DNA of 64,000 nucleotides from Cyanophora paradoxa CCMP329 (Eukaryota > Plantae > Glaucophyta): the NCBI GenBank assembly GCA_004431415.1, contig QPMI01000651.1, forward strand, positions 1 to 64,000, read 5' to 3'. Below are positions 2,669-48,697 of this stretch, piece by piece. The notes below the pieces were generated by a model. That model was not told the DNA's origin, did not search any database, and saw only the letters and a list, made by a program, of their open reading frames with translations. Made by a program: the position numbers and the translations under genes. How positions within the stretch are numbered: position 1 is the stretch's first letter; every line of letters starts with the position of its first letter.

Positions 2669-5600
2669 TTATACTGTGACATTTTTAATTTGGTCTATTT
2701 GACTTTGTAAATCTTTGCATTTCTGCGATAACTCCTTCACTGCTTCAATGAGAACAGGAATTAAACCTGTGTATTCAAGAGATAGGTAGCCATCGTCTTT
2801 TTTAACATTAACTACCTCTGGTATTACCTTTTCTACATCTTGTGCAATTAAACCTAATTTTGTTCCGTCTTTTTCGCTTCCAATTCGTTTAAAACTTACT
2901 CCTTCTAATCTCTCGATTGCTGAAAGAGCGCCGGATATCTTTTTAATATCGGTTTTGTATCTTATGTCACTTCCTTGTGTTAAATAACCTCCAATCCACA
3001 TCCATCCTCCATGATACATGTAACAAATATCAGTATCTTGTTCATTTCGGAATACAAGGGGAATATCTCCCCCTCCTTTCAAATATGTAGAAGTTTGGTT
3101 ACCGAAATGGATACGATTATATCCATCACTTGAACTAAACCAAGTCCCCACAGATCCTGTTAAGATATTTGGTTTACTATAAACGTTATTCCAATGAATA
3201 TAGCCGGTGTGACCACCATAACTATTTCCAACCCAAATTTTCATGTAACTAATACCCATAATATGAACTCTTCCAATCTTTGGTCTAATCCGAATTGTGA
3301 GGAATCGATTACCAAGATGTATTGGAACATTATTTATACCACTGTGGTTACCATCAGGAGATGTGCTGTATGGTTGATAACTATTTACTGATGTAATAAA
3401 AACTTCATTCCCTTGTCGATTCACTCCCCAAATTTCAAAAATTCGTGAGTTAGTCCAAGGTAAATAGGTTAAAAATGCTGTTCCTGTGTGGTATCCATCG
3501 GGTATATCGAAGTCAATCCAAGCGGTAGAAGTTTGGTCATCATATTGATTATTATAGACATATGAACCATAATTATAATATGGATCCCATGCTGAACTCC
3601 ATGCCCATGTCCAACCCTCAGAACATCTATTAAATGCAATACCTCCTACTGTTTTATCTGCTGTGTGAAACTTTGGGACATCATTACCGTTTATTTGGAG
3701 TTTGGTGGTTGCATTAATAGTAGGTGCTGTAATAGTATTATTCACCCAAAAGTTACCATTGTTATAAGATTTTAAAATGGCTGTATCTGCTGAGTTTCTG
3801 AATTCAATTGACACACCATCACCATTTGGTCTCCCTCGTATATATGTGCAATCGCCATTACCAAACCAAATTCGTTCTACTGCATCTGTTGATTTTAACC
3901 ATGTATTTGTTGCCCATGTTGCCGTTCCTGGGAGGTCTGCGGCTGTAATTAATGCGGGGCGACTGTAAATATTATCCCAAGAGATCATACCAACATCATT
4001 ATCTGTTGCCCTCTGCCTACTCCAACCAAAAACTCCTGTGAGATGAATGCGACCTTTTCGACCTTGAACATAAATATACTTGTAAAACTCGCAATTAATT
4101 GATACAAACAAGATAGTATTATTTGTCCCATCATGATTTACTGACTGTATTCCTTGATAATCGTTTACACGTTTTAAGAAATGCTGATTGTTATTGAGAG
4201 TCTGACCATAGATATCAAAATATCTGCCATTATACCAAGGCATATGCTGAATATAAATGATTTCATACCTGTGGGGACAGTCCACCTCATAAAACAACCG
4301 CTACAATCTTCATCATTTTGTGGTGTTGTATAACATCCTGTTTGTCCTGTTCTTGGTGACCAATTCAAATTCCAATTATTTGCGCTTCTATCTGTTGATA
4401 CTACATCTAATTGATCGAAATCATATCCTTTTGGAATTGTGTTTCCACCAATTTGTAGACTAGTAGCGTTTACAGTTCCATTAACTGTCCCACCTGTAAG
4501 AGGTAAATAATTTCCTAGAGCTGCTGTTAACTCTGCATCTGTTGTATAATTATTTAGAGTCGTTCCCAATTCACTTTCTGTTACATAGCTGCTTAAATCT
4601 GCTGTTGTAAGATACCCTTTATTGGTTAGGTAATCATCTGTGACCACACCTGAAAGGGTTGTATTGTGTAAGTTTTTTGCTGCCATCCTCTGATTGACTT
4701 CTAAGGCTCCACCTGATGTCGTTTTTATCCATGCAATCTCACATTTCCCATGATCATCTGTGGGTTGTCCCGCAACGGGAAGATAGTTTACAACTTTCTC
4801 CCTTGTGAATACTATTTTAGGTCTTGCTCCATCATATGCGCTTTGATCTGTTACGTTAATTTGAATAGCTGCTGAAAAATCCGCTACTTGTCCTATTTCT
4901 CCTGGGTGATAATTCGTAACATAGATACTGGGGAAAGTATCGTTTACTCCTACATTGAAATCGCCACTATACACTCCATTTACGATTGGATCCCTGGGTA
5001 ATCTTACTGCAAGAGTTCCCACCATCGGTGTGCCTGTTTCACCTGTAAATGAACCATTGAGACTAACATAATGATCATTCAAAAATAGCCTTTCAGGTGT
5101 ATTAATCGATTGGTAAAGTGTGACTCCATTAAAAACGTTTCCGATTGCATTCAATTGTGCGAATACTGGCTGTTCATCTATTTCACTCCAAATGTGTCTG
5201 TGATTAGAGTTTGTGATCTCTGAGTAGTCATGAGTGTGTGAACTGGGCGGGAAGGTTGAGGGGGGATTTGTTATATGCTCCCATAAATGATCATGTGCAA
5301 AATCTGTGATCTCATCTTTTGTGTGTGTGTGGGCGAAATCTGTTATTTGATCTTTTGTGTGAGTGTGGGCGAAATCTGTAATATCTGCTTTTGTGTGTGT
5401 TTGTTTTGCTAACCAATCTAAAACAACATTCGAAGTGGGATGATGTGGTAGAGTTGCATTTTTGGTAACTGTGAGATTTTCAATAAATATATTGCTCGAA
5501 TTAATTTTAAGATCTTCATTATTCAATATGGGCTGCGTATTTGGAAATCCATACAATAATTGTATATAATATCTAACCGCGTTCTTTTCTTCAATAGATA

Positions 5601-8456
5601 ACGCACGATTGAAAACGATAATTTCGGCAAGATCTCCATTAGCAACAGAAGAACCAAATGATGCAAAATTAGAAGGTGGAAGAAAATCACCCGATGATGT
5701 TCCAATATCAATACCACCCATTCCTACGACAATTTGCTCTGAGGAAACAGTGAAATCCCAATAATTCCACGAATTATAAATATATGATGCATCGAATAAT
5801 GGAGGAGTTGCATTTTCTAAATCATTTTGAATTTGTAGTGAAACACCAAACTTTTGATTTTTACAACCATATCCAATCCAATTTTGATAAGAACTATCCC
5901 TTATACTCAACATATAAGAAGGATTTGTAGTATTGATCCTACCTATAAAGAATAATGTAAGACCTAATGACCAATCTATTGAAACACTATTCCTATAAGC
6001 CATGTTTAATTCTTTCCCAATCGAAATTTGATTGTTTAGGGTTGCATTCAAATAATAATAAACAGTTTCCCAATTCGAATAATTTGTTAGATATGGTATC
6101 TGTGTAGTAACTCTGTTATATATCTGACCTTGATAATATATCAACTGACCATGTTGACCTGATGCTTTCCATGCAAATATACAATTTGGAATAATTGGGG
6201 CTGGATCAATGACAGTAGTAACAGCATAGTAAGGTCTATAAAGTATTTGTATAGTATTTTGTGTTCCAATTGTTATATTTCGATACACTGTAAGATTACT
6301 TGTGTAAATATCATCTGCCCATAGGTTACTTGTCCATATGTTACTTGCTGAAATGTTACTGGTGTAAATGTTACTTGTGACTGTAAGGTTTGTATCATTT
6401 TTAATCACGAATAAAGAAAGAATATTCGTTAGTTCTCCTTCGTCAATATATCCTTGATCTTCTAAATAATCTTCTGTTACCACTCTCGATATATTTTCGT
6501 TGTGAATGTTTTTTGCAGCCATTCTTTGATTGGCTTCCAGAACCCCACCATAGTTTGTTTTAATCCATGCAAGCTCTGCCCTTCCATAGTTATCATTTGC
6601 AGTTCCCACTATGGGAATATAGGAATATTTATCTCGACTGAAAACTATCATTGGTCTTGATCCATCTAGACTGCTTACATCTGCTACATGAACCTGTATA
6701 GCAGAGTTGTAATTTTGGTAGGTTGCTGGGTCTGTTGGGACTCTGAATGTATCTGTGGGAATGTCAGCCTCCATGTAGCTTGACACAAAGATATTTGGTA
6801 TGGTTGCTCCTGGTTCAGGTGGGTTTTCAAAAGAGCCTGGTAATGTCCGAATATGAAGTGGTCCTCTCATGGCTGAATTTGCAAGTGACCCATCCACATT
6901 GACATAGTGTTCATTCAAAAAGATCCTTTCAGGGACATTGCATGTCTGGTAAAGAGAAACTCCCATTAGAGGTTCAACTTTTGAAAATTCTGGTTGGTCA
7001 TTGATCTCATCCCAGGTGTGTTCATGGTTGCTTGCTGCAAACTTATCTGGTATCCCATCCAGATCACCCCAGTCATGCCTGTGATCCTCTGGTGGGAATT
7101 TCTCTGGTTTACCTAATATCTCATCCCAGTCATGGTTGTGATCCTCTGGTGGAAATCTTGCTGGTTTGTTATTGATCTGCTCCCAATCTGGGAAGAACTC
7201 CCAAATCTCTGGGCGAAATCCATCTGGTAATAATTCTTCATGGGTTCATATGGTTGCTCATAATCAACAACTGGTGGTTCGAGACCATCTGCTAAATATT
7301 CCTCATGGGGTTCATAATTCTGCTCATATTCATACTCTTGTGGATCTAAACCATCTGGTAAATACTCTTCCTCATTGGGATCATATTGATCATATTCATA
7401 CTCTTGTGGGTCGAAACCATCAGGTAGGTATTCCTCCTCATCTGGAACGAATTGGTATTCGTCAAGCTCCAAAATATCAATTTCAGGAGGTAAATATTGC
7501 TCATCAATTTGCTTTCTTGGTTCAATTATAGGTTTATTTCGAACCTGCTCCCAACTCACAATGTGTTGACCAAAAGGAACTGTCTCATCTGCTGTGTATT
7601 CTCTTCCTGGTTGCTTTTTGGGTGTTAAATCTGGTGGATCCCATGGTAGTGGGAAGGGAACTGGGACAGGTCCATAATACTCAAAGATCTCTCTTATGGT
7701 CTTCTCACTTACAAGTTTCTCTCCATTTGCATAGACATTGCTTCCATGGATATTTCGCCATTGTCTGGTTCTAATACCAAGATCTTTGGTGTTTGTCACC
7801 AAAGGTAAAAGGTGCCTATCCATTTCGACAAGGTCTGGGTGTAAATGAACTGTTACTGGTTGAGTGGGGCTACTGTTGACAGTGATAGACGCCTTATTCT
7901 TTGCTGTATCACCAGGTAGTTGGAAACCGAATTGTGCATTAGAAGCCGAATTCGCCACAATATCTCTTGGATAAACATTGTTAGTGAACTCGATTTTGTT
8001 GGTTTCTCCATGGGGGGCTATCTGTAATATTTCGGGAATTTGTGCAATTGCATTTGATCCTTCATTATAGATTCTCAAACCACTCTGATGCCCACCCTTC
8101 TCATTTTGAACATTGAATATTAACCTACCACTATCGAATCGAGTTGGAATATCTGGATGGGTTCCACTGGTTTTCAGTTTTCTTGGTCTGCTCCTGGTTG
8201 CTTTAATCTGGGCTACTTGATTCGATTTCACATTCCCCATGCTGAAAGCAACACTCACATCCTCCTTTTCGGGATCCATTTCGTTTATTGAAAGTGCATG
8301 CTCTCTTGGGTGAGTCTTTGAGGGTTCATCTGCACTGTGATCAATTGAGATTGACCCTCTGGCTGTCAAGTTATCGAAATTCACATGTTTGTTATCTGCC
8401 TTCCCTCTTCCTGATGAGGGAATGGTTTGAAGGTTTGCTGGGTAATTGAAACTCAT
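2669..8456 (-). CDS. Giant fibre protein (~1900 aa, frameshifted) with LamG-like domain, HxH repeats and C-terminal peptidase-S74-type intramolecular chaperone
   Basis: ORFs 7113-8456, 4174-6966 and 2669-4297 are collinear with the element 2 fibre. Motifs include YLPLTGGT, HTHTKDQITDFA and terminal SDIRYKTDI...GLIAQDVEKVIPEVV...YTGLIPVLIEAVKEL plus coiled coil. Confidence 0.85.
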
Positions 8457-10498: not shown

Positions 10499-10746
10499 GG
10501 TTGCGCAACCTGGTTGCGATGATGCAACCATGGTTGCGATATGATGCAACCATGATGCAACCATGGTTGCGCTGGTTGCGCAACCAGGTTGCGCAACCAA
10601 TTTTTTTCCGATTGAGTGGTTGCGCAACCAATTTTTTTCCCATTGAGTGGTTGCGCAACCTGGTTGCGATGATGCAACCATGGTTGCGATGATGGTTGCG
10701 ATGATGCAACCATGGTTGCGATGATGGTTGCGATGACGCGCAACCA
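10499..10746. repeat. Array of palindromic GGTTGCGCAACC / GGTTGCGATGATGCAACC units
   Basis: Directly visible in the central non-coding region of element 1. Confidence 0.9.
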
Positions 10747-10774: not shown

Positions 10775-10917
10775 ACCGAAACTTCACCGAAACTCCACCG
10801 AAACTTCACCGAAACTTCACCGAAACTTCACCGAAACTTTTCCGAAACTTCACCGAAACTTCACCGAAACTTCACCGAAACTTCACCGAAACTTCACCGA
10901 AACTTCACCGAAACTTC
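10775..10917. repeat. 11-bp tandem repeat (ACCGAAACTTC) x13
   Basis: 143 bp with two variant units. Confidence 0.95.
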
Positions 10918-11038
10918 AATATCGGTCATACATATGTATTTTATTACCAGGTGCTCCGTTTTTAAATCTGAAAACAGATTCGGAATCGCCACGATAGCGC
11001 CAATCAGGATTCGTCGTGATCGGGCACTTACAAAATAA

Positions 11039-11322: not shown

Positions 11323-12723
11323 CTATTTCCTCTGCCCTCTTCGTAGATTGAATCGAGTTTGGGGTGCAGTATATGTTTCTTTGGTGGTTGAAAAGTCATT
11401 ATACCACCTCTGACTGTTGACTTCTGATAATTTCTGGGTTCCTGCTATGGTCAACTTCTTTAATTCTTTCTCTACTCTACCCTTCTTTTGTGCTCTTGCT
11501 TCTGTGAGGGGTTCTTTTGGTATTTCACTTGCTTTTTCTATGCCCTCCTTTCTGATTGCTGAATCAACCCTGGCTTCCTCCTTTGCCTGTTCAAGAGCAT
11601 CCACTGTGGGAGTTTCATGATACTCAACACCTTTAATGGGCAGCAGTTCATGAAAAGCGAATCTACCATCAACTATCTCACCACTGGGACTTCTGATTCT
11701 GAACTTGAAGCCCTCTCTGCCCTCCACACTATAAACAATTCGAGACCAATTAACCCCTTGCTTTGCAAATGGATTCTTTTCAACTTTCACTCTCACAAAC
11801 ATTCCAGGTTTCAGGGCATCAAGATACTCAATCGATTTCTTGAATCTCTGATCCTCCATATTCACTATCTCTTTGTAGTGGGCTTCTGTGGTCTCTGCTG
11901 GTTTTCTCTTGGTTGCAGAGTGAATGGTATTATTATAATTATACTCAATATCACCCAACACATCAAAAAATCGTGCAGTATTATTTGCAATGCAGTAGTT
12001 TGTGATCAATCTCTTGATCTGTCTGTTAAAGGCTTCAATTCGACCTTGGGTTCTGTGATCTGCAACATCACTTAGTTGATGCTCAATGAATTTTGTTCCC
12101 AAATAATCTGTGAACAACACATTGGTAAATTCGCTTCCACTGTCACTCTGAATGCGAACAATTGGTCTGGGGACTCTCTGTTCAAGTTGCTTGAATGCTG
12201 CAAGTGTAGTAAGAGCACTCTTGTCTCTCATTGGAATTATGAACCCTGTTCTCAGGGTTGACTCCATTGCACTCATAAATGTATCATAACCATCATTCTG
12301 CTTTTTGTATGCAGGAAAGAAGAGCAGATCAATCACATAGGTATCAAGGGGTTGCCTTATTGGAATCATGGGATCTCTCTTTCGAGATAGGGTGGGTGCA
12401 TTAATCTGGACGACCTCCTGCTTATCATACCACTCTCTCATCTTCTTGTAGTTCTCCTCTGGTAGTTCCTGTCTCATTGCAGTAAATCCCTTGTAGCCTG
12501 TCCTGGGATCATAGAACTTCTTAGCAATCTTCGACTCTTTTGGTGCTGTCTCAGCTGGGAGGGTCTCTGGGATTAATTGCTTGACCATCTCTGATCTTTT
12601 CAATATTCGACTGCTCTTCTCCTCCACTGGAACTGTGATGGGCAGGATATTCCCTCGATCTTCAATTGCCTCTTTTCTTACAATTCTGGGTGGTTGTCTC
12701 AATCCTATTTGTGTAGAAGGCAT
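11323..12723 (-). CDS. Polinton-type retroviral-like (rve, DDE) integrase
   Basis: YVIDLLF (D), IQSDSGSEF (D), GRIEAFNRQIK (E), YNNTIHSAT, NWSRIVY. Start taken at MPSTQ by comparison with element 2. Confidence 0.93.
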   Translation of the reverse strand: MPSTQIGLRQPPRIVRKEAIEDRGNILPITVPVEEKSSRILKRSEMVKQLIPETLPAETAPKESKIAKKFYDPRTGYKGFTAMRQELPEENYKKMREWYDKQEVVQINAPTLSRKRDPMIPIRQPLDTYVIDLLFFPAYKKQNDGYDTFMSAMESTLRTGFIIPMRDKSALTTLAAFKQLEQRVPRPIVRIQSDSGSEFTNVLFTDYLGTKFIEHQLSDVADHRTQGRIEAFNRQIKRLITNYCIANNTARFFDVLGDIEYNYNNTIHSATKRKPAETTEAHYKEIVNMEDQRFKKSIEYLDALKPGMFVRVKVEKNPFAKQGVNWSRIVYSVEGREGFKFRIRSPSGEIVDGRFAFHELLPIKGVEYHETPTVDALEQAKEEARVDSAIRKEGIEKASEIPKEPLTEARAQKKGRVEKELKKLTIAGTQKLSEVNSQRWYNDFSTTKETYTAPQTRFNLRRGQRK

Positions 12724-12906
12724 CTTTACCTTATCTCTCATATAATAAATGCAAGAGTCTGTGTGGAAGGAGAACACAATTCCAAACTACTTTGCAATTG
12801 AGCCCAATGATCCAGGATTAAGATGTATATGGCTGCTGCATTTAATTCGCGGTTTATTACTTCTTGGAGAGCGAAACCAAAGAAAAAGAAAGATTGATGA
12901 AGTAGA

Positions 12907-15900
12907 TTAGAGCCCAAATGGAATGCTGTGAATTCCATCGTCTAATATCTTCCTTTTGCTATCGAGTTGGTTTAGAGCCACCCTTCTGCTCTCCAAATCA
13001 TATAGGTTGTGGTCTTGCCTTCGCTTGTTTACTACTGCTACTGTTTTGGTGATGCCTTCAAACAGGCATCTCTTGAAATCATCAAAGTGAACCTCTTTGG
13101 AGGAAGTCCCAGACATCTTTATTTTATCAAAGGTCTCAGTTCTGAAAGCATAGAGTTTCGATCTCAGACCTACATACTCCACAATCTTTGCATTTGGAAA
13201 CTCGTTTTTATATTTACCTGGAATCAAACGATTGCTCCTATCAAAGAGAGGGTGGGTGGGATCATAATTACTGCAATCCAGGTGTCCAGCAATTCGCTTC
13301 ATCTCATTATTTAGATCATTGGTATGCAGCAGGAGACAGAAAGAATCTGTATCATGGAATAGTAGCTCTGCTGTTTCCCAAGTTCTCCTCACCACATCAT
13401 AAAAGAACCTGCTATTGTGGAGTTTCGCGAAATCCAGCACAAAAGCACCAATTGCAACAGGTTTATCTAAGTGAACATGCTTGGAATACATCTCAAAGGC
13501 AACAGCATTTTCGTTTAATACATTGGTTGCCTTGATGAGTGGACTTGCAGCATATTTCTTGCAAAGTTTCTCACTGTTTGCAATCTTTACCACAGAGCGA
13601 CCCCTGCATGATTCGAGGCATTTACCATAGATTGCATTGTTCATTAATTTAAAGAAGTCACTCTCGAATCTGGACATAGATTGGCGCCTCAGTTTCGTAT
13701 TTAGATCAATATAACTCTTCATGAATGCAGAGGTTGCAAATGAGAGAACCCTGTGAACCTTCGTGATTATAATACCTTTGCTCACAAGATAGATCAAGAG
13801 AGGTTGGGAAATCACATAGTTATTTTTGGGTGAGAATGTTGCAGTGAGTTTGGGGTCTTTGCTTATCTTCTCACCTGTGATATCCAGTAACTTTCTTTGA
13901 TACCCACCCAGCATTTCGGTGGTGACATGTTCTTTATTAACTACAAGTGGAAAATCGTAATGATCTGTGAGAGTTTGTGGGTATTCCAGGTCAACTTCAA
14001 TAAAGGCACTTCGTCCTTGGGTCTCTTTAAGTGCCTCTGAGACATCTTCCCATCGAAAATCTCCAATGGGCAGTTCTTGACTGAGAGCAAAACCATACAG
14101 ATTATTTGCATCCAAGAGAACTATATGGTCATCTGGGTTTTCCACCTTTGCATATCGAGTAGGCATTGTAGCAAACCCACCTCGAATTGCTCTCTCAATG
14201 AATTCGTATTGCCCTACATCACTGATCTGCTCGATCTTTGCTCTGGTATAAATGAGCATTGCATCCCAGGATAATCCAGGAGCCGAAACATAGTGGGCAG
14301 GATCCAATCCATATTGGGAAAACGCCAATTCTCGGAAAGTCTGGAATTTACTCATAAGATCACCAGAATCCACTGCCTGGAAGTCCATGAAGTGCGAAGC
14401 ATCTATGAATTTCCACATGCCCCATTGCAGGGAGAGGTATTGATCGAAATTCTTGCTCAGGATCTCAACACGAAGTTTATCATCTTGCTGTGCAATTTTG
14501 CGGAATATTTCGTGTCCACATTCATCCATGTGATCCACCACTATTGCAACCTTGGTTTGTTTCGAGATTCTCCTGTGGAGATTGCAGTTTCTGCATGCTT
14601 TCCCAATAAATGCTCCTGATTGATGACAATGGTCTCTCACTGGGAAATTCTCATGGGTAAATCGTTCAGCACAGATATAACAGTGTTTAGTAATCTTGTA
14701 TTGTGCTTTCTGCTCCTCTGTGAGTGGGTGCATTGGAATATTGGTGAATAGAGTGCGGATTACTTGGGGTCTGATCTCTGTGAGAGTGGTAAACAGAGCA
14801 CCAAGTGGATCTGATCCCTCGAAATAATGAGAGATCACCTCATCCCCCATCACAACTGTTAGAGAAACCGATTTAACCTCTCTCTTACTGCGGTTCTCAT
14901 CAATTGGAACCGAGTGACTGTCCATTTTCACATAGCAGATAGTGGGAAGCCACACAGTTTTGCGAAGGTGTTGAAGCCCAAATGCAATGTGACTTCCAGA
15001 TTTCGGACATTTACCTTTGCTTTCCCTCCAATCAATGCAGCGATTGGCTTCTAAGTGAATGTCCAGCTTCTCCTGAGTTCTGAAACGAGACAGGCAGGTC
15101 TCACAATAATAAATGCGACCATCATGGGCTTTATCAAAGGTGGTTTTCAGGAGTCGACTCAGAGACATAATGGTGATATAATGTCCTCTATCATCCTCTT
15201 CGTTTTCGATTAATAAAAGGTTAATCTTGGTCTTTCTCCTCGGGTTGCTGGATTGATGGAGAGGATAGAAACACTGTGCTTGATTATCTGCACCATAAAT
15301 GTTGATACTCAGTTCAGGGTTCTGCTCCTCAAATCGATCAATGATTTCTGCATCACAGGCAACTGGAAACTGGATGCCTTCGAAATTGAGTTCGTTTAAC
15401 CATCTTCTATACTGGCTGGGTTCATTGCTCTTGTGTTTATTGATGTCCTTTCGGTGCAGGTAAGCCAAGATTGCATACTTGAAGCAGTCTTGACCATCAA
15501 TATTCTTGACATTCACAGTTGCTCTCTTTAATCCAATCCACTCAGGTGTTGAGAAGAAGCAACCACCCACAGGAGCATAAGACATTATAACCACTCTCAG
15601 CATCTCGATGCGATCCAGTCTGTAACTGTCCACCTGCATCATCTGTTCCTGCATTGCTTGAAGTGCATTTCGCAGTTCAACATCAATATTTCGAGATCTT
15701 GTGATGACAAAGTAATCACTATAAATGAACTTGGTGATCCACACCCTTGGATCACTCACTTTGGTGAACTTACAAATGAAGGTCAACCGAGTCTTAATTG
15801 CTCTCAGGTCTTGGAGTTTCTGTCTGAGTCTCTGAGGTAGAGTGGGTGCAATTCTCTCCAAGAATTCAATCCCATCTTGGATAACCTCCCCTCTTGCTCG

Positions 15901-16188
15901 ATAGGTTAACCAAGAGTATGCTTTGTTCATTGCTTCCCCATCTTCAATCTCGGGTTCAATTGTTCCCAACCTTAAACCTTCATCCCTGAATTCCTCCATC
16001 TTCTCAAAACGATCATAGAGGCGATTAGTAATTTCTGTGAGTTGAGATAATCTTGGTCTCCTATCCAGGATTGCTGCCTGGCGATCATATTCGAATTCTG
16101 TAATATCACCAGTAACTAAAAGGGTTCCTAAAAGACCGAGTATTTCGTTTTTCTTTTCTTTGATGATTCTATTTGATTGGCGGGGCAT
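12907..16188 (-). CDS. Protein-primed family B DNA polymerase (Polinton type) with degenerate 3'-5' exonuclease
   Basis: Pol motifs DANNLYG, KLMNNAIYGK, DTDS, GLRSKLY. N-terminal DCFKY...GHY (vOTU-like dyad); CYIC...RDHCHQSG...CRNCNL zinc insert. Confidence 0.95.
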   Translation of the reverse strand: MPRQSNRIIKEKKNEILGLLGTLLVTGDITEFEYDRQAAILDRRPRLSQLTEITNRLYDRFEKMEEFRDEGLRLGTIEPEIEDGEAMNKAYSWLTYRARGEVIQDGIEFLERIAPTLPQRLRQKLQDLRAIKTRLTFICKFTKVSDPRVWITKFIYSDYFVITRSRNIDVELRNALQAMQEQMMQVDSYRLDRIEMLRVVIMSYAPVGGCFFSTPEWIGLKRATVNVKNIDGQDCFKYAILAYLHRKDINKHKSNEPSQYRRWLNELNFEGIQFPVACDAEIIDRFEEQNPELSINIYGADNQAQCFYPLHQSSNPRRKTKINLLLIENEEDDRGHYITIMSLSRLLKTTFDKAHDGRIYYCETCLSRFRTQEKLDIHLEANRCIDWRESKGKCPKSGSHIAFGLQHLRKTVWLPTICYVKMDSHSVPIDENRSKREVKSVSLTVVMGDEVISHYFEGSDPLGALFTTLTEIRPQVIRTLFTNIPMHPLTEEQKAQYKITKHCYICAERFTHENFPVRDHCHQSGAFIGKACRNCNLHRRISKQTKVAIVVDHMDECGHEIFRKIAQQDDKLRVEILSKNFDQYLSLQWGMWKFIDASHFMDFQAVDSGDLMSKFQTFRELAFSQYGLDPAHYVSAPGLSWDAMLIYTRAKIEQISDVGQYEFIERAIRGGFATMPTRYAKVENPDDHIVLLDANNLYGFALSQELPIGDFRWEDVSEALKETQGRSAFIEVDLEYPQTLTDHYDFPLVVNKEHVTTEMLGGYQRKLLDITGEKISKDPKLTATFSPKNNYVISQPLLIYLVSKGIIITKVHRVLSFATSAFMKSYIDLNTKLRRQSMSRFESDFFKLMNNAIYGKCLESCRGRSVVKIANSEKLCKKYAASPLIKATNVLNENAVAFEMYSKHVHLDKPVAIGAFVLDFAKLHNSRFFYDVVRRTWETAELLFHDTDSFCLLLHTNDLNNEMKRIAGHLDCSNYDPTHPLFDRSNRLIPGKYKNEFPNAKIVEYVGLRSKLYAFRTETFDKIKMSGTSSKEVHFDDFKRCLFEGITKTVAVVNKRRQDHNLYDLESRRVALNQLDSKRKILDDGIHSIPFGL

Positions 16189-16492: not shown

Positions 16493-16580
16493 TGTCACAA
16501 CACAACGATTTTCGATACGTTTTTATATTGTCCGATTAAGAATCGAAACAGTCATCGACCCACAGGGGGGAGTCTGTGGT

Positions 16581-16730
16581 TAATTGGGTGTGACGCCTGT
16601 GACGCCTGTGACGCCTGTGACACCTGTTTTCAGAGGTTTGTAGATTTTTGAAATTTTAAAAAGTTTGAAAATAGGCGTCACAGGCGTCACAGGCGTCACA
16701 CTCAATTAAAAAGGTGTCACAGCTGTCACA
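16581..16730. repeat. Inverted iteron-like array (TGTGACRCC x4, 49-bp AT-rich core, GGCGTCACA x3 plus 2 more); candidate replication origin
   Basis: Directly visible, 70 bp downstream of the primase-helicase stop codon. Confidence 0.85.
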
Positions 16731-16799: not shown

Positions 16800-19163
16800 T
16801 TACTCATCCCCACCTTCAACATCACTGTCATCCACCAACTTGCGACTATGCTTCTTTTTGATCCCAAAGTAGCCACGAGCAAGAACACCATTGACTCGCT
16901 TTCTCTCAGCCTTCACATTAAAGACTTCGCGAAGTCTCTTCAAGATAGTGCATTCTGTGATTTTCTCATCAGATTTGCCCATGTGATCCATCTTAAAGTG
17001 ACTGATAATGGACTCACTTGTGGCGAAATCCCCTTGACTCTTGGTGAGTTCATAACTCTCACGAATCCATTCTCCAATCTTGTCATTCTCATTGAAATAT
17101 TCAACACCTTGATCAACAATGGACTGGGGTGGTTTGGTGACGAATTCATTGAGAGAATGGGTTCTCCACATTTCCAGGAGAATGGACATATGCGCCATTT
17201 TATAATCGTCATCATTCTTCATTAGGCGCATGAGAGTGGTGTCTGCTTTCTTCTCACCAGGCTGAGGATCGACCTTGAAGACATTTTCGAATCGGTAGTA
17301 GATAATTCGCCTTTGAATTGCTGCATCTGGTTTACTGATTCCCAAGTTGTCATTTGTGGACAAGAACAACTGGAACATGGGAATGAATGTAACAAGATCT
17401 TTGAAAAGAGCTCGAACCTTCATCTCATTCCCACCAGTAACCTGTTTGATTTTGTTCAGTTGAAGCATATCACCATCTTCTGCTTCATTACTGAAAACAA
17501 TTCGTTTACCAAGAATGCAAGCGAGTTCTGGGGAAGCCTCTGACGAACTCTTCTTGGGTTTAGTCCAATATGTCATGTCCAGTGACCCATAATACTCACC
17601 AAATGTGTCTTTCACCAACTCTTGGAGCAGTGATTTCCCATTTGCTCCAATTCCAGTCCAGCAAGTGTATCTCTGATTTTCTGTCAAACCACTCAGGGCA
17701 TAGGCAATTAATCCCATCATAAATTCGCGGTTTTCATCAGATTCGATAATATCTGCATAGATGGATTTAATCTTCGCAACTTTCTCTTGGTCAATTTCTG
17801 TGGTGTAATCGTAGCCAACAGTCTTACTCACCATATCATCTGGGAGTCCCTGTCGAAAAGTCATGGAGTTCAGGTCAAACACACCATTTGTAAATCCAAT
17901 GATGTTGGGAACAGTATCAAGTCTCTCGAAAAAGGTCTTGTCACTGAACAGAACTGAAAGATCAGACATAAGTGCAGTTCTGTATGTAGTCTGTTTGAGG
18001 CTCTTAGCAATTCCCAGCAGAATCTTTGACCTTTCCTCCAAGGAATTGCGGTTCTCTTCATCACGAAGTGCTCTCTGTGCGAGTTGAACAGAACGTTGAA
18101 GATAAACTGGACAGACCTTGCAGCTCAAACAGAGAAAGATTCGCTTCCCAGTTTCATCCATCTCCCAAATCCCACATACATCATTGAACTTGAACCAGGT
18201 CTTGTTGGAATACTTGTATTTGTCTTGCAGAACAAGATAGGCAACCTGTGCGACATCATAATGGGCACCATCAGATCCAGCAGACCGATCAATCAGATTT
18301 TCGATCTTCACATCTGTCTCTTCCTTCACACGAACTGTGATGCTTCGCTTTTTGCAGTTTGCACTGTAACTCGAAACAATATATTTGTCCTTCTCCTTCC
18401 CTTGAACAATATACCAATTGTTCGAGTCATGGCTTCCCTTGCAGCAGGGACAGATCAGACCTTTGTTCTCAGCAGTGAAATTGTATCCCATCTTGGTCTC
18501 ATTGATGATTGTGGGCAAGATGAAACCGAATTCTTCCAGTTTAGAAAGAATATGTTTCTGCAAATTCTCCTCAGCGCACCTCTCAAAATAAGAATGTGCA
18601 CCTTTGGGGAATTCGTAGTTGTCAACAATCCACTTTTGCAACTCAGCAGTAGGTTCATTTAACTCACACTCAGATGCCCATGGCTCTCTGATCCATGTTT
18701 TGTTGGGACTGGGACAAATATTAATTACCCCAGCAGTCCCAGTGGATGCAATCGTTTTGCAGTCGATCTTGGGGTTTCCTTTGAATGCACCTGCTTTATC
18801 CCAGATCTTAATGGTGTCGAATTCAGCAGGTCGAGCGAAATAAGCATGATATCCTTTTTTGGTTTTAGCAAGTGGATTAACACCACCGAAATCATCAGGG
18901 AATTGCTCCTCGAATTTGGCGAAATCCTCCTCTTGGTCGAAGTCAATAACCATGATATTACGAGCAAGAATGCCCCAAGCAGTATATTTACCGGATTTCA
19001 GGGCTTCATCGAATTTATCCCAAGTCCAGGATCCGTCTTTATGAGCGAAAAGCGGTCTCTTGGTATCAGGATCAACAGGAATTACGAGATTCTCAGACAG
19101 GACATCGTCTTCACGAAGCCAGTCAACAAGGCGTTTCAGGGATTTCTTGGCGGCAGCGTTCAT
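16800..19163 (-). CDS. Bifunctional Prim-Pol-type primase, Zn finger and D5-like SF3 helicase
   Basis: VIPV...KRPL, WGIL...VIDFD, KTKKGYHAYF; CPCC..H..N; IGFTNGVFDL; Walker A GIGANGKS; IKQVTGG; DAAIQRR. Confidence 0.92.
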   Translation of the reverse strand: MNAAAKKSLKRLVDWLREDDVLSENLVIPVDPDTKRPLFAHKDGSWTWDKFDEALKSGKYTAWGILARNIMVIDFDQEEDFAKFEEQFPDDFGGVNPLAKTKKGYHAYFARPAEFDTIKIWDKAGAFKGNPKIDCKTIASTGTAGVINICPSPNKTWIREPWASECELNEPTAELQKWIVDNYEFPKGAHSYFERCAEENLQKHILSKLEEFGFILPTIINETKMGYNFTAENKGLICPCCKGSHDSNNWYIVQGKEKDKYIVSSYSANCKKRSITVRVKEETDVKIENLIDRSAGSDGAHYDVAQVAYLVLQDKYKYSNKTWFKFNDVCGIWEMDETGKRIFLCLSCKVCPVYLQRSVQLAQRALRDEENRNSLEERSKILLGIAKSLKQTTYRTALMSDLSVLFSDKTFFERLDTVPNIIGFTNGVFDLNSMTFRQGLPDDMVSKTVGYDYTTEIDQEKVAKIKSIYADIIESDENREFMMGLIAYALSGLTENQRYTCWTGIGANGKSLLQELVKDTFGEYYGSLDMTYWTKPKKSSSEASPELACILGKRIVFSNEAEDGDMLQLNKIKQVTGGNEMKVRALFKDLVTFIPMFQLFLSTNDNLGISKPDAAIQRRIIYYRFENVFKVDPQPGEKKADTTLMRLMKNDDDYKMAHMSILLEMWRTHSLNEFVTKPPQSIVDQGVEYFNENDKIGEWIRESYELTKSQGDFATSESIISHFKMDHMGKSDEKITECTILKRLREVFNVKAERKRVNGVLARGYFGIKKKHSRKLVDDSDVEGGDE

Positions 19164-20833: not shown

Positions 20834-21592
20834 TCAGTTTATTCGAATGAACACCACTCTTGACCTCTTTGGGGCTTCCTCTTTCTGTGGAGGTGGTAAT
20901 TCGTCCTCTTTCTTTTTGGGCTTCCTGTGGAACCGAGGAAACTTAAAGTCTTTAACGAGTTCCGCTTTATCAACGTAGTATTCCACCGAATAATTCGCAG
21001 AACTCCAAATGAGAAACTGATAGGAGTGAACGTATTCCTCAAACATCTTATAGAAAGCGTCTTTATCCCGCATGATATTGTATTCTTCTTCAATGGCTTC
21101 CAGTTCTTTGCGATTGGCGGCACTGAGGAACATTGCATAATCCGAATTGACGCGAATGGTTGAAGAAACCTTACGCAGTTTCTGAGTTATGCAGAAAATT
21201 GTAATCGCCGAGTGGCGGCCGCGCGAATACAGAGATCCAATAATTTTATCACGGGTAAGGTCTACAATCTCATTGTCTATAAGATCATCGAGAACAACAC
21301 ATAATTGATTAACGGGTTCTCCTTTCTCAATTTTCTCTTGTCTTTCATCGAGAAGTTTAGCGATGTAAGGCGCATCCCATTTACCGAGCTGTAATGTTGC
21401 GACATCATCCCAAAAATGATTGAATGATGTCCCACTTATAACAAGAACAACATCTAACTTTTTCGCATCGTGAAGTTGTTTTAGCCAATATTTTACGGCT
21501 TCTGACTTGCCCGTCGCGCTTTTTCCGATTGCTAATACGCGAAAAGGGGGTTTAATCATCTCAGCAGCATTAAATTCGGGAACGTCAGACAT
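20834..21592 (-). CDS. A32/FtsK-HerA genome-packaging ATPase
   Basis: Walker A GKSATGKS, Walker B VVLDD, SRGRH arginine motif, ITQ, IRVNSDY. Confidence 0.95.
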   Translation of the reverse strand: MSDVPEFNAAEMIKPPFRVLAIGKSATGKSEAVKYWLKQLHDAKKLDVVLVISGTSFNHFWDDVATLQLGKWDAPYIAKLLDERQEKIEKGEPVNQLCVVLDDLIDNEIVDLTRDKIIGSLYSRGRHSAITIFCITQKLRKVSSTIRVNSDYAMFLSAANRKELEAIEEEYNIMRDKDAFYKMFEEYVHSYQFLIWSSANYSVEYYVDKAELVKDFKFPRFHRKPKKKEDELPPPQKEEAPKRSRVVFIRIN

Positions 21593-21654: not shown

Positions 21655-23022
21655 TTACAGATTAATTCGTCGGAGACCATCTTTGTCAACAATAATGAAA
21701 CTGTGCATGAGAGCACGAACATTAACTGTGAGTGCCTTGTCAGAAGGCATGTATAGAGTGAGGAAAGAAGAGGAGGAGTTCGTGAGATCAACATATCCAG
21801 ACTGGGCAATGTTGCGAATCGCTTTCTCTCCATCCACACAGAATGGTAGACCACTGAGGACATATTTGTCTGCAACCTTGTCCATATTCGAGCACTTGAA
21901 GGCATCCGCAATTAATTCGGCACCTTTGAGGAGAGGGATGGGCTCAGTAGCATAGAGACGTTGACCATTAATTTCAACAGTGAAAGTAATGTCTTTCGAG
22001 TTAGCATACGTTTTCAGAACACTGTGAGCACCAGTAGCACTATCAATACCTTCATAATCACGAACTGAAACAAGAAGACCATAGACAAGACCCGAGATCT
22101 GTGACAGATTAATACGATTGGGTTGCGCATTGCCTTTTGCAGCGAAATTGATGCTATCAACGAATCCAATATCCAGAGCAGGGATAGCCATACCAGTGGT
22201 CTTCACCTTCTCAATGACAGTAGCAAACAGCTCATCAGAAACATTAATAGCATGCATGTAAAGACGAGGAGAAGTGACTTTAATTTCAGGGGTTGTTCCA
22301 GAGATGGTGAAAGTGGTGATCTGTTGACCTACATGGGCAAGGGTTCCATCTGTGAAATTTCCAAGTCCATCATCAGCAGTTGCATCAACAGTTCCAACAG
22401 CAGTTGTAAGTTCACGACCACCATAAGAAGTCTCAACATAACCCTTTCCAGCATCCTTGAACCAGACAGTTACCACCATTTCTCCTGAGAGAGCACCAAG
22501 AGGGAGGTAGTGGTTTAGCCATGGGACGGGGATTTCAACAAAGAATGAACCACCAAGTCGGTTGGTTCCATGAGCAGGGATACCATGAACCATACCCATT
22601 GAACGCTTCTTTTTGGCGAGTTGATCCTCCGAATAATAGACAAGAGGGAAATGAGCAAGGAAATCAGAAGGCACATGGAATGTGTAAGATCCATAGGTAA
22701 TTTCAAGTCGAGAGACAAGAGCACCAACTGGGCGAACGTATCCATTGCGAACAAGGTCGGTATCACCAGCAAAAGTGATGGCTGGAAGGTCAAAGGCAAG
22801 TTCGAGTTTTCCACAGAAATTGTAGCGAGGGAGCTTGAAAGAAATGCGATTTCCAGCATTATTCTCGAAAGTGTTGCTTGGGTTCACAACAACAAGAACT
22901 GGCTTCGACTTGGATTCAAGACCAAGCATGAGAGAGTTGTCCAGGAAGAACGCCTTGGCTTCTTCCGGGGTTGTTAGAGCTTCTTTCAGAGAAAGACGTT
23001 GGAGGGTCGAAGTAATATCCAT
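21655..23022 (-). CDS. Major capsid protein (double jelly roll, PLV type)
   Basis: 455 aa from MDITS, beta-rich (ISFKLPR..F..KLELAFDLP; LVSRLEITYG), located between penton and ATPase, highly conserved in element 2. Confidence 0.85.
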   Translation of the reverse strand: MDITSTLQRLSLKEALTTPEEAKAFFLDNSLMLGLESKSKPVLVVVNPSNTFENNAGNRISFKLPRYNFCGKLELAFDLPAITFAGDTDLVRNGYVRPVGALVSRLEITYGSYTFHVPSDFLAHFPLVYYSEDQLAKKKRSMGMVHGIPAHGTNRLGGSFFVEIPVPWLNHYLPLGALSGEMVVTVWFKDAGKGYVETSYGGRELTTAVGTVDATADDGLGNFTDGTLAHVGQQITTFTISGTTPEIKVTSPRLYMHAINVSDELFATVIEKVKTTGMAIPALDIGFVDSINFAAKGNAQPNRINLSQISGLVYGLLVSVRDYEGIDSATGAHSVLKTYANSKDITFTVEINGQRLYATEPIPLLKGAELIADAFKCSNMDKVADKYVLSGLPFCVDGEKAIRNIAQSGYVDLTNSSSSFLTLYMPSDKALTVNVRALMHSFIIVDKDGLRRINL

Positions 23023-25490: not shown

Positions 25491-25928
25491 TGTGACACCT
25501 ATTTAATTGACTGTGACGCCTCTTTAATTGACTGTGACGCCTGTGACGCCTGTGACGCCTACTTTCAAACTTTTTAAAAATTTTCAAAAATGACAGACTT
25601 CTGAAAACAGCCGTCACAGCCGTCACAGGCGTCACACCCAATTAAAAATGGAATCTATCTCTCTTACTGAGATATTCAAAAATATATTCTTGTCTTACTG
25701 AAATCCGTCTTGTGACACCTCTGACACCTACAAAACACTATCCATTAATCCACCTTTCCGAAAATGCGAAGTTGTCTTACTGGAAATGGTCTGCAATTTC
25801 GCTGTGACACCTAATTTAATTGAGTGTGACGCCTGTGACGCCTGTGACACCTACTTTCAAACTTTTTAAAATTTTCAAAAATGACAGACTTCTGAAAACA
25901 GGCGTCACAGCCGTCACAGGCGTCACAG
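25491..25928. repeat. Two further copies of the TGTGACGCC inverted iteron array, inverted relative to 16581-16730
   Basis: About 25525-25645 and 25815-25928 match the reverse complement of 16581-16709, including the AT-rich core. Confidence 0.88.
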
Positions 25929-26040
25929 ACATTCCACCCCTCTTACTGACTTTCTCAAAAACAAAACTATCTCTTACTGAATATCATTTGAATACTACCT
26001 GTCACACTTGATCTCAATTATTCTGTTTTATAGAACATAT

Positions 26041-26295
26041 GCAATCTAATCGATTGTTCAATTGGAGACCATGCAACTCTGTGACACTTTTTCGGTGCAA
26101 AAATGTAAATCCGCAATTCCATCGATTGTTTAATTGGACGTGATGCAGTTCCGATATATTCCAATAGAAAATCGCGCAATCTTCTCAATTGTTTAATTGG
26201 ACATAATGCAACTCTGTGACACTTTTTCGGTGCAAAAATGTAAATCCGCAATCCCATCGATTGTTTAATTGGACATAATGCAACTCTGTGACAGT
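26041..26295. repeat. Subterminal ~65-72-bp imperfect direct repeats (~4 units)
   Basis: Recurring GCAAT...ATTGTTTAATTGGAC..ATGCAACTCTGTGACAC. Confidence 0.8.
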
Positions 26296-26619: not shown

Positions 26620-26714
26620 ACACATATTGAAAAACGAATTTAAATCCAGAGTGAATCGAGATCGCGAAGCGATCGAGATGAACGAGGGATTTAAATTCGT
26701 TTTTCAATATGTGT
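26620..26714 (+). repeat. Right terminal hairpin of element 1
   Basis: Perfect 28-bp stem 26620-26647 / 26687-26714. The 39-nt loop folds further via three tandem GA:GA mismatches to a GC-GAA-GC tip. Confidence 0.93.
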
Positions 26715-28171: not shown

Positions 28172-28326
28172 ACACATAGGGATACCCCTGATCCAAGCCC
28201 TCCGGCCTTCGGCCTACAGGCTTGGATCAGGGGTATCCCTATGTGTGCGCGTTTCAGGTACTAGGGTAGTAAGCATTTATTTCAGGTCTTAGGGTATTAT
28301 TCATGTCTTTTTGGCACCAGTAGGGG
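28172..28326. repeat. Left TIR of element 2 with terminal hairpin
   Basis: Perfect 28-bp stem 28172-28199 / 28219-28246. 28181-28326 matches the reverse complement of 56661-56806 with about 14 mismatches. Confidence 0.93.
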
Positions 28327-30105: not shown

Positions 30106-33100
30106 CTATGCTACCATCTTCCCTGTTGCTATATAAGTCATTTGATAGTGGAAAAGTCCAATGCTTTCATTGTATTCTCTATTTGCCGAAATTGTTGCAT
30201 AAATAGTAAATGTTGTTGTTGTGGAACTTGTGACACCATATACCAATACATATGAACCACCATTATACCCATCTCTTAAATTGAGAACGACTGCTGGGGC
30301 TTCTGCAAACGCTTTTGGGAATGTGACAACTTGTGGAAATCCCCAATGACCCGGACCTGTGATTGCTAAGGATTTTGAAAAACTCCCTGTCTGTATATAC
30401 TGGTCTTTATTGACCCGTTGTTCTGAGACAAGTTTCGCAATCTTACCATTGTCTTTTTCATCCATCGCATAGTATGCTCTTGCGTAAGCATTGCCACGAC
30501 ATAATAGTGTTTTATCGTATATGTTCGCGGAATTGTGGAAGAACCACTGTTCGTAGAATAAAGGAGAGTCTGGTTGGTAAATTTGACCGGATCCCACATA
30601 CATGGTCTTATTTGCTGTGATCGTATTTGCTACAAATGGGTCTAAGGTTGGGAAATCTGTGATTTCCGATTTCGTGTGAGTATGGGCGAAATCTGTTATA
30701 TTTGCCTTTGTGTGAGTATGTGCAAAATCGGTGATATCTGATTTAGTGTGAGAGTGAGGTCCGACAGTTGTGGAAGCTGTTGGTTTCCCGTAAATGTTAT
30801 CCCAATGCAAGAAGCCACTGTGTGATGATACAGCAGGATTTTTACTCCAACCAACAAGACCCACAAGGTAAATCCTTCCAATTCGCCCTTGAACACCAAC
30901 TTTACTCAGCCCTTCACAATTTACCCCGACATATTGCCTATACTCTACACTTGGGTCACTACCAGGAGAATAAGCATTTACTCTCGAAAGTGTATAAGAA
31001 TTTGTTGATGGATAAACTCCCACAACATCAAAGTATCTACTATTGTATTGACACACATAGAAGATATAGCATGTCTTCATTCCCGCGGGACAGTCCATAA
31101 CATCTTGTAGCCACTACAATCTTCATCACCAGAAGCCCATGTGTTTGCTCCTGAGTAAGGAGATATGAATGTAAAAAATCTCCAATCACCTGTGCGGTCT
31201 GTGGAAATACCACTTGTAGCATCGAAATTTGTGGGTGCTGTATATGTTGGTTTATTAATTAAATCATCATAATTTCCGCTTGTCGCAACTGCTGCTAAGG
31301 TGGGTCTATCCGTAATATGGCTCCATAAATGTAGATGTGGTGAAGGTGTGAATGTTACAGGCTTATCTGTTATACTATTCCATGTGTGTGTGTGGTCAAA
31401 ATCTGAAATCTCATCTTTTGTGTGAACGTGTGCAAAATCGGGTATCTCTAATCGGGAATGTGTGTGGGCAAAATCTGTTATTTGTGATTTTGTGTGAGTG
31501 TGTGTGGGTATCTCCAAATTGCTAAGTGTTAATCTGTCTTTGCCGATAATATTCAGAATTTCCCGAGTTAAGATTGGTTGAGTATTGGGGAATCCATACA
31601 TTTGTTGGATGTAATACCTTACTTTTTGTTTTTCTGCTGTGGTTAATGCTCTGTTGAATACAATAATCTCAGCAATGCTTCCCGCAAATATTGTTCCAAA
31701 TCCAAAATCGTTTATAGTGGAATCAGGTAAATAATTATTAATTCCTGTGAGAGTTCCCACATCGACACCATTTAGCCCCACTGTGTAGCTATCAGAAGTT
31801 ATTGTTTGGTCTGAGTAATACCATTTATTTAGCAAAGAGGGAACTGTGACAGCAATTGGAGGTTGTGTTACATCATTTATAGCGAAAGTAGTTGTCCCTA
31901 ATCTTGTTGAATTATTTGCTCCATAGTAGGCAAATCGCGTTGGTGATGTTGTTTTTAGCACACGCAAATGTGTATGAGAAGCACCTGTTTGTGTTAAATG
32001 ATATCTTCCAATATAGAAGAATGTCAAACCTTGTGACCAATCAATCGTTCTTGTCATCGTTGAGTTTGCTGAGTAGTTCCCTGAATCACTTGTTAAAGTC
32101 ATCTGATTATTTATAGCGATATTGGATGAGTAGTAGGGACTTCCTGTGGAACTGACAGTTATAGATGGAACGATTGAGGAGACCCTATTGTAAAGAATTG
32201 TTGATGCTGCATTTTGACCATGAACCCCTGATGCTTTCCATGCAAAAATACAATTGGGAATATTAGAAGCTGGATCAAAATTGGAAGTGATTCGATAAAA
32301 ATTTTCACTATAAGATTCTAAATAGCTTCCGGTTCCCATTTGAATTTTCCCTCCAACTGTTAGGTTGCTTGTCACAACCAAGTTGCTGGTGATGGTTCCA
32401 CCTGTGAGAGGAAGATAATTAGATAATGCTACATTAAGTTCAGGTTCAGTCACATATACATCAAGTTCTGATTTTGTCACATAATCTTCAAGAACTGCTG
32501 CAAGTTCTGTATCGTCTACATAATTTTTGCTTTCAAGGTAATCATCTGTGACAACACCTGAAAGGGTCTCATTGTGTAAATTTTTTGCCGCCATTCTCTG
32601 ATTGACTTCTAAGGCGCCACCTGCTAATGTTTTGATCCACGCCATCTCACATTTCCCGAAATCATCTTTTGGTTGTCCCACAAGTGGTGCGTAATTGAAT
32701 TTCGAGCGACTAAATATTATTTTCGGTCTTGATCCATCGGTTGCGCTTACATCTGTAACGTTTACTTGTAAGATGGCGTCTTTATCATCATAACTCACTG
32801 GATCTAATGGAAGTGGAGGTAAACCTGCTGTTAATGGGATATCTTCATTATAATAACTTGTCAAAAACAGACCTGGTTTAGTATCTATAACTCCCACCCC
32901 ACCTGCTGAAACCATTTGAGATCTTGAAGGTTGTTTAATGTATAATTCGCCATCCATTGTGGTGCCTGCGTCTATTCCTTTTCGGTGCAAATAGTATTCA
33001 CTTAATTGTAATCTTTCAGGAATGGTGTCACTCTGATAGAAACTAACCCCATAAAATCCGTCACCATTTACTAAATCACCTGTTGATGCAAAACGTGGTT

Positions 33101-47018: not shown

Positions 47019-47195
47019 GCAATCTCAGCGTTGCGCGGCCATACAAGGAGCAATCTCAGGCTTGCGCAGCCACACACTGAGCAATCTCCGGCTTGCGCGG
47101 CCATACAAGGAGCAATCTCAGCGTTGCGCGGCCATACAAGGAGCAATCTCAGGCTTGCGCAGCCACACACTGAGCAATCTCAGGCTTGCGCAGCC
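47019..47195. repeat. 31-bp tandem array A (~5.7 units, GCAATCTCAGGCTTGCGC...)
   Basis: Unit starts at 47019, 47050, 47081, 47112, 47143, 47174. Confidence 0.9.
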
Positions 47196-47446: not shown

Positions 47447-47687
47447 TGTGCGTACCGTAGCGCAGTACGCAAGCCACTTTGCGTACCGTAGCGCCGTACG
47501 CAGCCCACTGTGCGTACCGTAGCGCAGTACGCAGGCCACTGTGCGTACCGTGGCTCAGTACGCAAGCCACTGTGCGTACCGTAGCGCAGTACGCAAGCCA
47601 CTGTGCGTACCGTAGCGCAGTACGCAGGCCCCTGTGCGTACCGTAGCGCAGTACGCAGGCCCCTGTGCGTACCGTGGCTCAGTACGC
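47447..47687. repeat. 31-bp tandem array B (~7.8 units, each with TGCGTAC-N9-GTACGCA inverted repeat)
   Basis: Directly visible; no unique spacers. Confidence 0.92.
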
Positions 47688-48455: not shown

Positions 48456-48500
48456 TTCTTCCAATAACTATACCAATTAATCATCCCCTCCCTCCAGAAA

Positions 48501-48682: not shown

Positions 48683-48697
48683 CCCACCCTCATATGA

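Follow-up and report, generated by a model that had tools for sequence, protein, structure and literature searches.

Inverted repeat arrays behind primase-helicase genes as candidate replication origins of two polinton-like viruses integrated in the genome of Cyanophora paradoxa

The window analysed here, a 64-kb stretch of DNA, contains two related integrated viruses surrounded by GC-rich host DNA. Element 1 extends from before base 1 to about position 26714, its left end lying outside the window, and element 2 (about 28173–56806) has both of its ends in the window. Both elements encode an rve integrase, a polinton-type family B polymerase, a D5/SF3 primase-helicase, an A32-type ATPase and a likely double jelly-roll capsid protein. 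The integrase genes are located at 11323–12741 on the minus strand (element 1; E value of 0.002, below the cut-off) and at 54737–55978 on the plus strand (element 2). The element 1 polymerase (12907–16188, minus strand; 1093 aa) has an internal EndoVII-like stretch and was assigned by its motifs, the sole Pfam match being Endonuclease_7; that of element 2 is found at 51630–54725 (plus strand; 1031 aa). In both polymerases the catalytic motif reads F(H/T)DTDS; their exonuclease motifs, judged by eye, are presumably degenerate.

The primase-helicase of element 1 (16800–19163, minus strand; 787 aa) comprises a Prim-Pol domain (PF09250, below the Pfam cut-off), D5_N, an SF3 helicase and a predicted C-terminal winged helix, whereas that of element 2 (48698–51175, minus strand; 825 aa) comprises an unassigned N-terminus, PriCT_2, D5_N, an SF3 helicase and a predicted RFX-type winged helix (nt about 48722–48937). 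Pfam D5_N and DUF5906 were identified in both proteins, which differ at the N-terminus, Prim-Pol-like in element 1 and PriCT_2-bearing in element 2, where no catalytic primase domain was recognised with Pfam.

The A32-type ATPase of element 1 (20834–21592) matched Pox_A32 (E value of 3.9e-9), and the adjacent gene (21655–23022, minus strand) was designated a likely double jelly-roll major capsid protein on the basis of model matches; the model is of low confidence (pLDDT 40) and its matches are mostly major capsid proteins (best E value of 1e-10, TM about 0.3). No match to a Sputnik-type major capsid protein was obtained with Pfam for the selected ORFs of the window, nor was an adenain-type protease matched among the 20 selected ORFs scanned. 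The capsid proteins encoded at 21655–23022 and 43060–44430 had a single homologue among the scored candidates, EukProt protein P0197, and no relatives in the viral contigs, which suggests, at the sequence level, that these viruses represent a little-sampled lineage of polinton-like viruses (PLVs). The A32-type ATPase, the likely double jelly-roll capsid, the rve integrase and the TIR of element 2 identify both elements as PLVs (Polisuviricotina). Large fibre-like proteins (31077–36422 and 2669–6966) contain 12-aa HTHTKDQITDFA repeats and an endosialidase-chaperone (Peptidase_S74) domain, and several structural genes are seemingly split by frameshifts. In element 1, a palindromic GGTTGCGCAACC/GCAACCATGGTTGC block (10499–10736), followed by 13 copies of ACCGAAACTTC (10775–10918), separates the structural genes from the integrase gene. 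The matching module boundary of element 2 is occupied by two 31-bp tandem arrays (47019–47195 and 47447–47687), each followed by a copy of one block of about 100 nt.

The right end of element 1 is a palindrome with 46-nt arms (26620–26714), beyond which host single-copy DNA begins. In element 2, the left TIR (28173–28325) starts with a 75-nt palindrome, and the right TIR (56662–56806; 145 nt) has a terminal palindrome in which the outer 9 nt of the left end are absent. The palindromes at 28173–28247, 56738–56806 and 26620–26714 have ACACATA in common at the terminus, and no target-site duplication was recognised at the ends within the window. The two end palindromes of element 2 are distinguished by a single pair, A-T in one and T-A in the other, that is swapped in both arms; this hints weakly that each end is copied anew from its own sequence. 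Single TGTGAC(A) units are scattered among longer direct repeats from the terminal arrays of element 1 to its end (25491–26287).

The preliminary description of this DNA reported an inverted array of short repeats directly behind each primase-helicase, with a copy near the right terminus, and our analysis confirmed both features. The gene-proximal array of element 1 (16580–16709) consists of three to four TGTGACGCC units, a 45-nt spacer and three inverted units. The units are located at 16589, 16598 and 16607, with TGTGACACC at 16616, and the inverted units at 16674–16700; the array lies 99 nt behind the helicase stop (16800), and its spacer contains AAAGTTT at 16660. In element 2 (48501–48685), seven GGGTAGA units (48505–48561) face eight inverted ones (48622–48685) across a spacer, with AAACTTT at 48573; this array lies 12 nt behind the helicase stop (48698) and its two 75-nt arms are 100% complementary. 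As to an AT-rich core, the AT content of the spacer is 78–80% in element 1 and only 65–66% in element 2, against about 57% in the surrounding element. Element 1 has two terminal TGTGACGCC copies, at 25511–25636 (AAACTTT at 25567) and, as a direct repeat of the first about 290 nt further on, at 25825–25928 (AAACTTT at 25859); they lie about 700–1100 nt inside the terminal hairpin. The terminal array of element 2 (56553–56660) has three AGAGAGGGT units with a GGGTAGA core and AAAGTTT at 56625, and abuts the inner edge of the 145-nt TIR. All three terminal copies are inverted with respect to the gene-proximal copy of their element, the orientation being judged from the spacer.

A further inverted array (48320–48456), in which two AGGTAAGGC units face three, with AAACTTT at 48354, is found beside the element 2 array, and no helicase belonging to it is present in the window. 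It shares a contig piece at single-copy depth with an ORF of 107 aa (47947–48270), and its units resemble the GGTAAG-type units of loci L144 and L066 (see below for the locus set). This orphan array is likely to be a relic origin of another helicase type, and it predicts a third helicase type in the family. The AAACTTT/AAAGTTT motif lies a few bases inside one arm in all six helicase-type arrays of the window, the orphan included. A detector requiring at least two tandem 7-mers facing at least two inverted ones identified six arrays in the window and none in 30 dinucleotide shuffles, ruling out a chance repeat. The six were four of the five arrays of the preliminary description, the AGGTAAGGC array at 48320–48456 and a different, GGTTGCGCAACC block (10499–10732); the array at 56553–56660 was missed because its left arm has a 9-nt period and its right arm is degenerate. 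A telomere-like or G-quadruplex role was also rejected as a general reading, since most units are not G-runs.

An AlphaFold2 model of the last 400 residues of the element 2 helicase (pLDDT 83) matched poxvirus D5, ASFV PrimPol and SaPI5 PriRep (7ola; Z 24.4, rmsd 4.0, 325 residues aligned), and residues 322–393 of the model matched the RFX DNA-binding domain (1dp7; Z 8.8, rmsd 2.2, 70 residues aligned). The C-terminal domain of this protein is therefore predicted, from the model, to be an RFX-type winged helix; a sequence comparison of its C-terminal 125 aa with the PDB yielded nothing meaningful. For element 1, the prediction of a winged helix is based on a match of aa 688–774 (nt about 16842–17102, minus strand) to a profile of the other C-termini (37.7 bits).

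We assembled 194 helicase entries from viral contigs, metagenomes (4 loci, one of them a repeat of L163) and two phage records. Six entries were dropped (five duplicate contigs and one fragment, L009) and the remaining 188 were clustered at 85% into 108 clusters, which were assigned, by FastTree tree and contig context, to PLV/virophage-type (31), phage (7) and giant-virus core D5 (70) classes; these labels were given by eye, and L078 and L182 branch next to the core clade. Three clusters with less than 150 nt downstream were excluded, leaving 29, 7 and 69 clusters, respectively. An inverted repeat with a score of at least 23 within 420 nt of the stop, a threshold fixed after inspection of the data and reached by the best of 8 shuffles in 4.9% of loci, was found behind the helicase in 14 of the 29 PLV/virophage-type clusters (12/27 without the two of the window) and in 5/7 phage clusters, but in none of the 69 clusters of giant-virus core D5. 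Of the remaining 15 PLV/virophage-type clusters, eight have one arm and the edge motif or a variant of it, one has a weak array (L127), one is cut off (L175), and five have no array behind the gene (L170, L178, L179, L182 and L192), L182 having one upstream. Sputnik-type capsids are encoded by L001, L004, L144, L163 and L174.

The arrays consist of facing sets of 7–10-nt repeats around a spacer of 45–65 nt, and in 11 of them the arms mirror one another at 85–100% identity, irregular units included. The AAA[C/G]TTT edge motif was present in 11 of 15 full arrays, versus 7 of 143 control windows, and sits 6–12 nt inside one arm irrespective of the repeat sequence. The motif of a locus recurred elsewhere as a tandem pair at 17 of 24 loci, against 0.9 expected from the motifs of other loci, a count that takes in the two loci of the window, close relatives and one palindromic contig. 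The whole of contig L062 (9950 nt) is palindromic: two helicase genes lie head to head on either side of a central inverted repeat, and apart from a 356-aa pair there is no capsid ORF of at least 180 aa. L127 and L168 are satellite-type helicases with arrays in giant-virus-sized contigs of 548 and 720 kb. A single arm was also observed inside the 5' end of the helicase ORF in L163 (285–302), L164 (272–289) and L191 (about 160–177); it points outward, opposite to the arm behind the stop, and the two arms, if joined, would make a full array. A single-protein scan with either helicase of the window identified no relatives in the viral contigs, the exact GGGTAGA-array pattern occurred in none of these contigs, and none of 52 candidates from prokaryote genomes was confirmed.

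The preliminary description proposed testing the downstream repeat for co-variation with the helicase C-terminal domain across D5 loci, and the comparison supports such co-variation. In partial Mantel tests over 25 eukaryotic-virus loci, which are related to one another and were permuted without regard to kinship, with repeats and clade labels chosen by eye, the repeat was correlated with the winged helix when the helicase core was controlled for (partial r 0.37, p 0.001); with the winged helix controlled for, there was no correlation with the core (r 0.04, p 0.34). When GC content was also controlled, the value was 0.39 (p 0.002) for helix 3 plus wing, as against 0.08 and 0.12 for the equally divergent collar and linker. 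The correlation persisted without the single-arm clade (n=16, 0.38) and after thinning, and was weaker with automatically chosen repeats (0.20, p 0.024). The N-terminus was also correlated with the repeat in the 21 full-length proteins (partial 0.38, p 0.016, versus 0.46 for the winged helix).

The same pattern can be seen in individual pairs. Close pairs have common units (L167/L066, AGATAG; L174/L175, TTTATGAT; L144/L166, GGGTAAG; L164/L191, GGGTTGG), whereas L004 and L174, with a similar core (68%) and a diverged winged helix (32%), have different repeats. The two helicases of the window are sisters in the core tree (45% identical), with winged helices only 14% identical and unrelated repeats. 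L168 and element 2 have a GGGTAG repeat in common at 29% winged-helix identity, so the code is not one-to-one. No second locus with a winged helix of the element 1 or element 2 type was found, and the direct comparison of same domain with same repeat therefore rests on other clades. The co-variation speaks for the C-terminal domain as a putative determinant of repeat specificity, but the loci are related and the N-terminus is correlated as well.

Several observations bear on the portability of the helicase gene and its array. Elements 1 and 2 are 86% identical in the capsid and 91% in the ATPase, as opposed to 41% in the polymerases and 33% in the helicases, the latter over just the C-terminal half of the protein. 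The helicase has the same place with respect to the capsid block in both elements but the opposite orientation, and the array stays 3' of the gene. Contig depth from four runs, a rough guide to copy number rather than a strict measure, placed the element 2 helicase at about 4x the host flank (in the three runs with this piece), versus 13–15x for its polymerase and 0.7–0.9x for the piece with the orphan array; the element 1 helicase and polymerase were level, at 22–29x. These depths suggest that most copies of the element 2 polymerase lie beside a different neighbour and that the orphan array is a remnant. The idea of a portable cassette is thus supported by signs of exchange. A protein of which only the sequence is available, P0001, appears as a natural chimera of an element-1-type Prim-Pol (43% to the N-terminal 285 aa of element 1) and an element-2-type helicase and winged helix (C-terminal domain 68% to element 2 and 25% to element 1).

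We consider it likely that the arrays are origins for their own primase-helicase, forming with it a helicase-plus-cognate-origin cassette like P4 alpha/crr, SaPI Rep/ori and pRN1, because they lie directly behind the gene, consist of facing repeats around a spacer, and carry a repeat that tracks the predicted winged helix. By analogy with SaPI, P4 and pRN1, the winged helices would bind the repeat units, one hexamer would load per arm, and the spacer would melt, after which the primase domain would prime synthesis. If priming takes place at the array, copying would begin internally and need no terminal protein. The second array would serve as a partner or second start site, as do crr and ori in P4, and the gene and its array would travel as a single cassette, as a new winged helix would need its own repeats. 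The choice of the extending polymerase is among the least certain parts of this proposal, as is the suggestion that the palindromic ends could let forks turn round. The combination of an internal origin with hairpin ends is known from N15.

The closest parallels come from prokaryotic replicons. The alpha protein of P4 likewise combines primase, SF3 helicase and winged helix in one polypeptide, according to sections of PMC2777425. In the P4 genome (NC_001609), crr lies 45 nt behind alpha and has inverted 8-mers at a 9-nt period, which are reused in ori, 4.7 kb away; crr is made up of two 120-bp direct repeats, and the terminal site of element 1 of two copies of about 125 nt. However, the P4 primase is of the DnaG/TOPRIM type, unlike the Prim-Pol or PriCT_2-bearing primase region here, the iterons of P4 have no evident AAA[C/G]TTT next to them, and P4 itself is a bacterial satellite that circularises, whereas the elements described here are integrated eukaryotic viruses with an rve integrase, a family B polymerase and palindromic ends. 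For SaPI Rep, passages of PMC9371898 describe 6–12 iterons directly downstream of rep, with at least two in opposed orientation on each side of an AT-rich centre, which are read by the C-terminal winged helix; binding was shown in that bacterial system, whereas here it is predicted, with units of 7–10 nt and common second copies. The pRN1 protein ORF904 has the Prim-Pol/SF3/winged-helix plan and, as here, an inverted element of about 100 bp just behind the gene, but the pRN1 origin, as presented in parts of PMC4234260, lies 54 bp behind orf904, depends on a stem-loop with a stem of 21 nt and a loop of 58 nt, and lacks iterons. Lactobacillus phage A2 has an annotated rep_origin behind its primase, with inverted ACGGGAGGAT units and AAACTTT inside one arm, and a spacer (about 130 nt) longer than those observed here.

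It is unlikely that the arrays are transcription signals, be they RNA hairpins at which the helicase transcript is terminated or polyadenylated, or promoter or operator motifs with a helper giant virus or the helicase itself as regulator. Both gene-proximal arrays can be folded into long hairpins just behind the stop codon, the TGACG sequence, which we take to resemble the plant as-1/CRE motif, may be counted in the same direction, and Mimiviridae polyadenylate at hairpins, as stated in parts of PMC4402537. In the single-arm virophage clade, moreover, 7 of 16 further sites are found at most 25 nt behind the stops of other genes, on the coding strand. However, none of the other gene ends in the window carries the repeat, no gene of at least 100 aa lies between the terminal copies of element 1 and the hairpin end, the arrays of L001 and L174 lie between divergently pointing genes, and none of the 69 giant-virus core D5 clusters has an array. 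Tandem units that vary with the winged helix, furthermore, are not required of a terminator. Transcription thus has real support in the single-arm virophage clade and fits the window poorly.

The arrays could also mark the limits of a mobile replicase module or be the sites of its recombination, engaged in its excision, inversion or integration without starting replication, which we judge improbable as the sole function, although a bracketing role in mobility is compatible with the origin reading. The two inverted arrays of element 2 enclose exactly the helicase, polymerase and integrase, arrays are present on both sides of the helicase in L001 and L174, as are outward-facing single arms in L163, L164 and L191, and repeats bracketing replication modules are read as signs of mobility in passages of bioRxiv 10.64898/2026.10.13.758929. 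By contrast, the copies of element 1 enclose the helicase together with the capsid genes and leave out the polymerase and integrase, paired copies retain their arms and edge motif while their spacers differ, the repeat varies with the winged helix, and the similar layout in P4, SaPI, pRN1 and A2 is a replication element. We attach an equally low probability to the possibility that function resides in a cruciform or stem-loop whose sequence is read with little specificity, and that slippage and template switching produced the tandem units and the mirror symmetry. The mirror identity of the arms extends to irregular units, the pRN1 origin is conserved in structure rather than sequence (as reported in sections of PMC4234260) and element 1 shares the domain plan of the pRN1 protein, but single arms with the same units and edge motif persist in eight clusters in which no stem is possible, and the repeat sequence follows the winged helix. 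Even under a stem-loop, the array remains an origin. Separate points against the origin reading are the spacer of element 2, with an AT content of only 65%, and the G-rich repeat of this element, which could form G-quadruplexes.

Two further suggestions of the preliminary description fared less well. A special partnership with pPolB is not supported, since the pPolBs of the window were unmatched in the flanks of 10 array-bearing loci (partial genomes), and L192, the only relative with a Pfam pPolB match, has no array behind its helicase. To speak of an undescribed replication system is too strong: P4, SaPI, pRN1 and phage A2 have the same design, and mobile primase-helicase modules on repeats have been proposed for PLVs, as passages of PMC11296320 and bioRxiv 10.64898/2026.10.13.758929 indicate. 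Support was obtained for the origin-like layout, the placement behind the primase-helicase and the own-type second copies at 17 of 24 loci.

In most virophages and PLVs, the start of replication is described as unknown in parts of bioRxiv 10.64898/2026.07.28.741278. In the "end module" model, as set out in sections of PMC11296320, primase-helicase modules of PLVs turn over and may use inverted repeats as an origin. Passages of that paper and of bioRxiv 10.64898/2026.10.13.758929 mention a direct repeat of Gezel-14T in the TIR and behind the end module and "small repeat arrays", and the latter also describes replicase mosaicism with repeats bracketing replication modules. In these passages, unlike here, the origin is placed in the terminal repeats, or the repeats are marks of mobility; the term "iteron" is absent from the main texts, and the passages contain no link between a repeat and a protein domain. 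The "small repeat arrays" drawn in these two papers by Barth may include sites of the kind described here. For Halocafeteria virophages and PLVs, some of which pair pPolB with D5, palindromes at the TIR ends have been proposed to prime replication in parts of bioRxiv 10.64898/2026.07.28.741278; that work concerns the ends rather than internal arrays, and its palindromes are mostly associated with non-pPolB elements. The relevant portions of PMC12220804, PMC8547959 and bioRxiv 10.1101/2022.07.28.501842 contain no description of an origin. We found no description of iterons in PLVs, virophages or polisuviruses in a literature search that covered the main text of openly accessible papers, and the sole match to "virophage" and "iteron", as far as its accessible text goes, concerns Vibrio PLE. 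Both the anatomy of the iterons and the way in which they track the winged helix appear to be newly described for these viruses.

The arrays are real and widespread, and probably functional. They represent a replicon design of prokaryotes that is newly recognised in satellite-type viruses of eukaryotes, and not a system of a new kind. A broader reading, possible rather than probable, is that D5-type virophages and PLVs share an origin code, in which the repeat would be set by helix 3 and the wing, and the constant AAA[C/G]TTT, found also in the Lactobacillus phage origin, would mark the site of loading or melting. The gene and its origin would then constitute a self-sufficient replicon that moves between capsid modules and into giant viruses, rewriting secondary sites to its own repeat, leaving orphan origins behind and letting sibling viruses within a single genome replicate independently. 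Together with the palindromic ends, this would amount to internal-origin replication of a hairpin-ended eukaryotic virus, with a "protein-primed" polymerase primed by the primase.

The analysis yields candidate origins of about 100 bp together with their matched proteins. One genome provides two naturally occurring specificity variants, the constant motif offers a target for mutation, and the giant-virus core D5 serves as a clean negative group. If the proposal is true, it would provide orthogonal origin-initiator pairs for algal vectors and a DNA signature by which satellite-type helicases can be distinguished from core D5, and would also account for the free exchange of replicase genes between capsid modules in these viruses.
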